A DNA stretch of 64,000 bases from NCBI GenBank assembly GCA_030700025.1, contig JAUYKI010000017.1, positions 2,748 to 66,747 of the forward strand. The letters run 5' to 3'. The position numbers and the translations under genes are program-made. Position 1 is the first letter of the stretch; each line of letters begins with the position of its first letter. Shown here one piece after another: positions 5,805 through 6,093 of this stretch. This DNA is from a bacterium (GTDB taxonomy: Bacteria > Patescibacteriota > Minisyncoccia > UBA6257 > 02-FULL-45-10c). The notes below the pieces were generated by a model. It did not search any database and was not told the origin of the DNA. It saw only the letters and a program-made list of their open reading frames with translations.

Positions 5805-6093
5805 AACCTATCTCAATAATATTTCCTAACCGCGTTGCTAAGATAAATGCCAGATTTCAAGGCACGACGACGAAATTATGGCCATAGCCACATTGAGGAG
5901 GAGTAACGAAGAAATATGGCATTTAGACCGCAACCCAAAGGGACATAGTAAATTTTGTTCATAACTTCGTTGCTCGGGCTCGACGTAGCCAAGCTACAGT
6001 CTCGCCCCTGCCTGCCGGTAGGCAGGCTCGCGCCTTGTTCTGAATCAAAATTTACTTATATCGCGTTTGGAATTATTATTGGGATAGGTTCTT
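5805..6093. repeat. Family-1 structured repeat element, copy 1 (about 289 nt), with terminal inverted repeats aacctatc(c/t)caataat ... attattattgggataggtt. It abuts the metG start codon.
   Basis: It aligns nearly base-for-base with 44560-44831. The core ggccatagccaca(t/g)tgaggagg...aacgaa...cataac(t/g)tcgttgctcg is shared with 27763-28041. It contains the nested palindrome cctgcctgccggtaggcagg. Confidence 0.75.

Follow-up and report, generated by a model that had tools for sequence, protein, structure and literature searches.

The DNA analysed here, a stretch of 64,000 nucleotides referred to as the window, carries a gene-less repeat of about 275 bases, which is present in three full copies, two solo 3' arms, and one 20-nt remnant of joined termini. 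Our preferred reading, to which we assign a probability of roughly 60%, is that this element is non-autonomous, MITE-type mobile DNA that encodes nothing and whose single-strand fold is under selection. The general claim of a mobile, non-autonomous element with a selected fold rests on computed results, which show its architecture, the compensatory upkeep of all stems, the multicopy state, and presence/absence polymorphism at the repeat ends. From the names attached to PilC homologues, the window organism was judged to be of the Parcubacteria/Paceibacterota type.

The three full copies lie where a sequence-only reading of the window had put them. Their best boundaries were taken from the inverted repeats. 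The members of the family in the window, together with the hairpin arms H1 and H2 as scored by the covariance model R1, are the following:

5804-6091, + strand: copy 1, 288 nt, termini GAACCTATC...GATAGGTTC
5832-5936, + strand: arm H1 of copy 1, R1 100.9 bits, tip GGCACGACGACGA-(hairpin)-TTGAGGAGGAGTAACGAAG
5940-6064, - strand: arm H2 of copy 1 (the H1 module inverted), R1 39.3 bits
20020-20062, + strand: solo 3' arm, copy-1/2 subfamily; its homology with the 3' arm of copy 2 extends over about 43 nt
27767-28041, + strand: copy 3, 275 nt, termini GGGGTCTGTCAT...ATGACAGACCCC
27796-27905, + strand: arm H1 of copy 3, R1 93.2 bits
27909-28013, - strand: arm H2 of copy 3 (inverted module), R1 61.9 bits
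28076-28095, + strand: 20-nt relic GAACCTAT-TGAA-ATGGGTTC (= GAACCTATTGAAATGGGTTC), both termini of the copy-1/2 subfamily joined
44559-44830, + strand: copy 2, 272 nt, inside the pilus operon, beginning 1 nt past the PilC stop codon
44587-44691, + strand: arm H1 of copy 2, R1 95.2 bits
44697-44802, - strand: arm H2 of copy 2 (inverted module), R1 62.2 bits
57122-57146, + strand: solo 3' terminus of the copy-1/2 subfamily, preceded by a hairpin and followed by TGGTATAAT, shorter than the arm at 20020-20062

A repeat search of the window returned copies 1 and 2 as a collinear pair (5804-5947 / 44559-44702, 76% identity), as had been described before, along with the inverted termini of copy 2 (44559-44596/44793-44830, 38 nt, 84%) and copy 3 (27767-27796/28012-28041, 30 nt, 90%) and the 25-nt 3' terminus at four places. 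The 23-nt core CACNTTGAGGAGGAGTAACGAAG is located at 5889, 27858, and 44644. Copy 3 has the same core with other termini, in agreement with the earlier description, its ends being unrelated to those of copies 1 and 2. The 3'-terminal 17-mer occurs six times in the window at up to 3 mismatches compared with 0.18 expected, and both solo 3' ends proposed from the letters are among these occurrences. Copy 3 is 70% identical to the type found in Elusimicrobia versus 61-63% to copies 1 and 2. Hence, two subfamilies with unrelated termini and one common core coexist in this genome. No stop-free stretch is common to the copies in frame and position, which confirms the reported lack of a conserved ORF.

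Copies of the element adjoin stop and start codons. Copy 1 is placed between the terminator of an AI-2E transporter gene and the metG start codon (ATG at 6094); its end is 2 nt upstream of this ATG, not exactly at it as had been assumed. The solo arm at 20020-20062 has a terminator in front (19986-20005), and the ATG at 20066 begins 3 nt after its end. The 20-nt relic sits 35 nt from copy 3, is not present in the related contig L021, and has the appearance of a footprint left by excision or of a copy that has collapsed.

Other repeats were observed in the window. Members of a second small repeat family at 11750-11887 (+) and 36627-36806 (-) have the termini AGAGTGTTTTATTCTCC / GGAGAATAAAACACTCT and are about 90% identical in their common parts; the 36.6 kb copy carries two extra inserts, and the 11.8 kb copy folds at z = -5.9. 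A perfect 20-nt palindrome, CCTGCCTGCCGGTAGGCAGG, is identical at 6007-6026 and 36659-36678 and was also detected at L021 1057-1074, another place in the related genome. It is nested in copy 1 (arm H2, in no other family member) and in the second repeat family, whose sibling copy is without it, each time between short direct repeats (CTCGC.../CTCGC... and CTCAGCC/CTCAGCC). A 45-nt inverted pair of the TTAGTAT type (44882-44926 / 60809-60853, 87% complementary) has its first member between copy 2 and the pilin gene. Long-arm tRNA genes at 24821-24909 (-) and 28814-28902 (+), inverted and 94% complementary, bracket a 3.9-kb segment with copy 3. Two large ORFs (50478-53453 and 53457-55103) contain tandem coding repeats of 144 nt (48 codons) at 52600-54400, which probably encode Kelch-like beta-propeller blades like those of the syntenic genes of L037. 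On both strands, the ends of many genes carry AT-rich near-heptamer runs (TTAGAAAT / CTAATTT type):

1782-1823, 3358-3410, 5741-5768, 8448-8580, 34588-34649, both strands overall: near-heptamer runs (repeat search)
37155-37188, 37548-37587, 37683-37759, 58092-58135, both strands overall: further near-heptamer runs (repeat search)

A count of further genomic copies had been proposed together with the family. Species-representative genomes and metagenome contigs were scanned with a search pattern made of the columns common to the three window copies, and 11 more distinct copies were found outside the window. Four of these belong to one Elusimicrobia MAG, on whose four contigs three copies are intact and one is 3'-truncated, two to Parcubacteria MAGs (one Candidatus Harrisonbacteria and one Candidatus Jorgensenbacteria, L005), and five to metagenome contigs. 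The metagenome contigs with real homologues were L009, L010, L013, L015, L016/L017, L019, and L020; L011 has the same sequence as the Jorgensenbacteria copy. Pattern matches in L002, L007, L012, L014, and L018 fell within coding sequence and were discarded as chance. Two pattern scans of viral contigs yielded 0 matches and 12 chance matches, and BLAST gave no match in plasmid and phage collections. The view that the element is outside any known RNA class was upheld by covariance-model searches: Rfam at gathering score returned only tRNAs in the window, and at E<=10 neither copies 1 and 3 nor the Harrisonbacteria copy L003 gave anything credible. Nothing relevant was found in the literature searched on MITEs or structured repeats in these phyla.

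Copies are 266-290 nt long, except for one deletion variant of 237 nt (L016 698-934, = L017), which is devoid of the H2 apical hairpin and both pyrimidine tracts and keeps all long stems. Outside the window, the copy-1/2 subfamily is also represented by a solo 3' arm (ACTATTATTGAGATAGGTTCT) between two genes at L020 3869-3889, on a Hainich groundwater contig that also bears a full copy of another subfamily 550 nt away.

The full copies all form far more stable folds than shuffled sequence does, the MFE folds reaching -117 kcal/mol (z = -9.3) for copy 1, -122.7 kcal/mol (z = -13.7) for copy 2, and -119.3 kcal/mol (z = -10.3) for copy 3. The common structure is a four-way junction composed of a terminal stem P1, the long hairpin H1, a central hairpin of 3-5 bp (CCC/GGG), and the long hairpin H2. 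Covariation was scored on a 14-sequence alignment, and partners slid by 1-3 columns as well as 500 column shuffles served as controls. In this cloverleaf 91.3% of the cells were paired and 34 of the 53 pairs had changed on both sides, so the fold is kept by compensatory change as the sequence-only reading had suggested. The covariation score of 0.472 compares with at most 0.151 in the slid controls, and 0 of the 500 shuffles reached the observed values. Both-side changes were found in 12 of the 13 pairs of the terminal helix and, after separate alignment of the H2 stem, in 17 of its 25 pairs. About 95% of the stem pairs are Watson-Crick and about 3% are G·U.

An alternative rod fold pairing core1 with core2, including pseudoknotted b-b'/d-d' helices, was disfavoured because of its weaker stem energies (summed duplex energies of -157 and -204 kcal/mol versus -368 and -335 kcal/mol for the cloverleaf H1/H2 stems) and its little or no covariation, although MFE folds of some copies nonetheless prefer long-range core1-core2 pairing. 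Among these long-range helices a-a' was paired in 86.6% and e-e' in 77.6%, the latter with a few double changes. In b-b' and d-d', the segments that had been called complementary from the letters, no pair had changed on both sides. These segments (gacgacga/tcgtcgtc and gagtaacgaag/cttcgttgctc) indeed are complementary, but covariation backs pairing of each within its own hairpin arm and not with each other.

R1, which was built on H1 alone, recovered H1 on the + strand at 93-101 bits and H2 on the - strand at 39-62 bits in all three window copies, and with default filters the opposite-strand match to H2 was also obtained in most copies of the other loci. A whole-element profile used with nhmmer matched on both strands over the full length. 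Thus, the element is an inverted pair of one hairpin module of about 105 nt plus terminal arms, and its two DNA strands fold almost alike.

Conserved GTAGC hairpins form the tips of both arms. The H1 tip reads GGCGCG-ACGACGA-AA..-(GTAGC hairpin)-..TTG-AGGAGGAG-CAACG and the H2 tip CGTTGC-TCGTCG-(GGAAAGGTAGC hairpin)-TCCTCCTCG-CGCC. What is conserved at the tips is a purine-rich (CGA)3/(GAG)3 in arm 1, to which a pyrimidine-rich equivalent corresponds in arm 2; the tips are identical across lineages and across both subfamilies sharing this genome. In the register of the H1 tip the C of each CGA pairs with a G of GAG at every third position, and the positions between them are G·A and A·G, which makes an irregular helix of three tandem purine-purine pairs between C-G pairs. 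Copy 2 and L009 have one tandem G·A replaced by G-C and C-G and the adjoining C-G by U-A (columns 67-69/110-112), a double compensation that supports this register. In H2, columns 194/258 switch from G-C to A-U in copy 3 and the Elusimicrobia copies.

The arms behave differently from the cores. Terminal inverted repeats are long in every lineage, with a stem of 26-32 bp and ungapped arms of 19-39 nt per intact copy, but their sequences are unrelated between lineages (GAACCTATC..., GGGGTCTGTC..., GGAGCCGTTAAG..., GGAGCGCGGG..., GAGTCTCTTT..., AGCAATGTCT...); the termini mostly start with GGRG/GAR. Between lineages, the cores have a mean pairwise identity of 0.72-0.77 and the arms one of 0.58-0.61, the latter being close to that of unrelated sequence at the same alignment settings. 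The spacings of the conserved blocks are near constant at 56-61, 52-58, and 52-57 nt, apart from a value of 68 for the second spacing in L008, where the central hairpin is expanded.

The element is an insertion. The Logan contig L021, which is 81-89% identical to window positions 27438-28400 and encodes an identical SWIB protein, is without exactly 27767-28041, at the inverted-repeat ends, and represents the empty site of copy 3. Its sequence ...TTTTATGGACGCGAC|TATGGTATAGT... matches ...TTTTATGGGCGTA(element)AGTATGGTATAGT... in the window. Removal of copy 3 in silico leaves a 16-nt junction equal in length to that of L021, and no target duplication is needed. Copy 2 is located in the conserved pilM...pilB-pilT-pilC-pilin operon, where the gap between PilC and pilin is 375 nt in the window versus 97, 31, and 27 nt in three syntenic relatives (L036-L038), in 44 kb of which nhmmer found no element; the relatives' PilC proteins are 67-70% identical in this comparison, the best PilC homologue reaching only 70%. 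Furthermore, four intact copies of the Elusimicrobia type (three on separate contigs of one MAG, and L019) are 89-97% identical in unrelated contexts. Logan contigs matching the window at 100% identity terminate within copies 1 and 2, which is expected of repeats.

Target-site duplications, which had been suggested as a check, gave a divided picture. Of the four intact copies of the Elusimicrobia type, three have the same trinucleotide, TTA or TAA, on either side (TTA/TTA, TAA/TAA, TAA/TAA), and the fourth has GAT/TAA. A flanking duplication is absent in most Parcubacteria copies, and the empty site of copy 3 requires none. Overall, the empty and filled sites, the near-identical copies in differing contexts, the lack of an ORF, and the TIRs support the non-autonomous mobile element that was one of the two earlier proposals.

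The orientation with respect to neighbouring genes varies: the element is sense in the window and in L009 and antisense in L003, L005, L015, and L019; in L001 and L020 it separates divergent genes. G·T:A·C mismatches amounted to 23:9 when the element was folded as the + strand and 18:11 as the - strand, which is no real strand bias, and an RNA-type G·U bias (apparent 26:9) vanished after the opposite strand had been folded likewise. Since both strands are equally constrained, the folded form is probably DNA, either a hairpin/cruciform or a single-stranded intermediate. The pattern fits constraint on both strands (DNA hairpins, a cruciform, or use of either strand), not one transcribed RNA.

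In the preferred reading, a protein encoded elsewhere would move the element. Judging from conservation, it may recognise the arm tips and act at the base of the terminal stem, at a fixed distance of about 57 nt from the tips, so that the terminal stem would set the place of the cut. Tip recognition combined with fixed-distance cutting would explain why the core and the arm length are conserved and the arm sequence drifts under the pairing constraint alone. Should neighbouring genes be affected through a promoter, a terminator, or RNA stability, this would be incidental. Among the window ORFs that were scanned with Pfam, none was recognised as a transposase or another candidate enzyme. In about 330 kb of loci the terminal repeats were not found elsewhere, and isolated modules were not found either, save for a 19-bit match in L001. 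Thus, no cognate insertion sequence was identified in these loci. With a fixed folded core, fixed arm lengths, and free arm sequence, conservation is reversed in comparison to ordinary MITEs, which points to structure-based recognition.

A more far-reaching version is put forward tentatively, and we consider it doubtful: the core could be the substrate of an undescribed structure-specific mobilisation system, or else a small functional RNA or ribozyme carried by the element. The enzyme of such a system would read the two mismatched arms (tandem G·A; pyrimidine mismatches) and cut the base of the terminal stem without target duplication. If this is true, structure-specific mobilisation would represent a novel mode of DNA mobility for candidate-phyla-radiation bacteria and Elusimicrobia.

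Among the alternatives, ordinary MITEs would be moved by a cut-and-paste mechanism, with DDE transposases recognising the TIRs and a separate insertion sequence for each subfamily. The GGRG/GAR start of most termini and the identical T(A/T)A flanks of three of the four intact Elusimicrobia-type copies are in accordance with this, and we take them to recall IS5-family elements with 3-bp TNA duplications. Copies next to stop and start codons also are as expected for such elements, and size, TIRs, lack of an ORF, intergenic site, and stable fold match the usual bacterial MITE definition (PMC3184786). What makes this explanation unlikely is the pattern of conservation: normally the termini are conserved and the interior is free, the reverse of what is found here, and two subfamilies with unrelated termini and the same core occur within one small genome. 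The copy 3 empty site, which needs no duplication, and the G·T versus A·C mismatches, which are without the strand bias that RNA-level constraint would predict, also count against it.

A REPIN-like or otherwise structure-specific ssDNA element would use its inverted modules as binding and cleavage sites of a single-copy enzyme of the HUH type (RAYT/IS200-like) or recombinase type and would move via a folded single strand, the target not being duplicated. The inverted doublet of one hairpin module, the compensatory change that maintains pairing on both strands, the strictly extragenic position, and the GTAGC hairpins conserved at both arm tips all resemble such a system, which would also explain the one empty site without duplication. 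REP units are 20-35 nt long with a 5' GTAG. The unit found here has about 105 nt, and its GTAG is inside the stems instead of 5' of the stem, so it is not a REP unit. Long TIRs are foreign to REPINs and IS200/IS605, and neither RAYT nor TnpA turned up among the scanned ORFs of the window. We regard this explanation as improbable.

The other earlier proposal, a family of structured RNAs with promoter or RBS activity, was unsupported as stated, considering the varying orientation, the likeness of the element to its own reverse complement, the missing strand bias, and the weakness of the promoter hexamers. The 3' arms of copy 1 (TTTACT-17-TATTAT, 6051-6079) and copy 2 (TTGGCT-18-TATTAT, 44789-44818) each contain a weak sigma-70-like match of 9/12; none was present in the solo arms and copy 3. 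The terminal motif was not found upstream of genes in element-free relatives, and the promoter idea was abandoned. From this absence we conclude that the solo arms are relics and not a general regulatory motif. Copy 3 is located just upstream of a pre-existing extended -10, TGGTATAGT, and the same -10 is present at the empty site in L021. An AGG precedes the ATG by 7-9 nt at copy 1 and at the solo arm ending at 20062. That structured ncRNA genes or cis-regulatory leaders are involved, with the four-way junction as functional RNA and the 3' arm as promoter or RBS of the downstream gene, is the least probable explanation and very improbable in itself, because strong covariation, the orientation of 3/3 copies and 2/2 solo arms in the window towards the downstream gene, the promoter-like hexamers, and the AGG are opposed by antisense or divergent placement elsewhere (L003, L005, L015, L019), a pseudo-symmetric element, about 3% G·U pairs without strand bias, presence/absence differences between relatives at essential operons, solo arms without a promoter match, a terminal motif missing upstream of the relatives' genes, and no matching Rfam family.

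To our knowledge, candidate-phyla-radiation bacteria have tiny, tightly packed genomes with few described mobile elements. In the window alone, gene boundaries, among them sites within the pilus operon and beside the metG start codon, are occupied by three copies and three relics of the element, by another small repeat family, and by the nested 20-nt palindrome. Since the family is common to the window organism and Elusimicrobia of similar groundwater, it marks exchange between lineages that are very far apart. The reversed conservation pattern supplies a concrete substrate for finding the enzyme. Of practical relevance, such repeats break short-read assemblies, as illustrated by the Logan contigs that stop inside them.

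Branched single-strand hairpins in which structure is conserved more than sequence, with functional in-stem mismatches, are known from integron attC, CTX-phi attP(+), and the T-/Y-shaped terminal hairpins of parvoviruses. The likeness of our element to these is one of analogy: the sequences are not similar, neither an integrase nor a Rep was identified in association with it, and the element forms chromosomal interspersed repeats. IS200/IS605-derived PATEs are without TIRs and by family definition have short hairpins. The element shares with them subterminal hairpins conserved as structure and possibly the lack of a target duplication, but its TIRs of 26-32 bp set it apart. As to structured ncRNA genes, covariation is present, and strand-specific constraint and consistent orientation are absent. 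REPINs with RAYT transposases likewise are inverted hairpin doublets that are extragenic, non-autonomous, and maintained by compensatory pairing (PMC3116915). In contrast to these, the modules described here are about 4 times longer, long TIRs close the structure, the copy number appears low, and the window ORFs scanned yielded no RAYT / Y1 transposase.

Bacterial MITEs such as Nezha, Chunjie, Correia/CREE, and ERIC, with the working definition of PMC3184786 used for comparison, are the closest in general properties. Like the element, they are shorter than 400 bp, have TIRs and a very stable predicted hairpin, contain no transposase gene, and are multicopy and intergenic, and their mobility was inferred from empty versus filled orthologous sites. 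No parent insertion sequence was identified for our element in the loci searched, and it is a four-way junction of two inverted modules of about 105 nt instead of a simple long hairpin. Moreover, its interior and not its termini is conserved across lineages and phyla. The element differs from described MITEs in its conserved core with varying termini, its two-module four-way junction, and its occurrence across phyla, and its behaviour is that of a novel miniature mobile DNA family.
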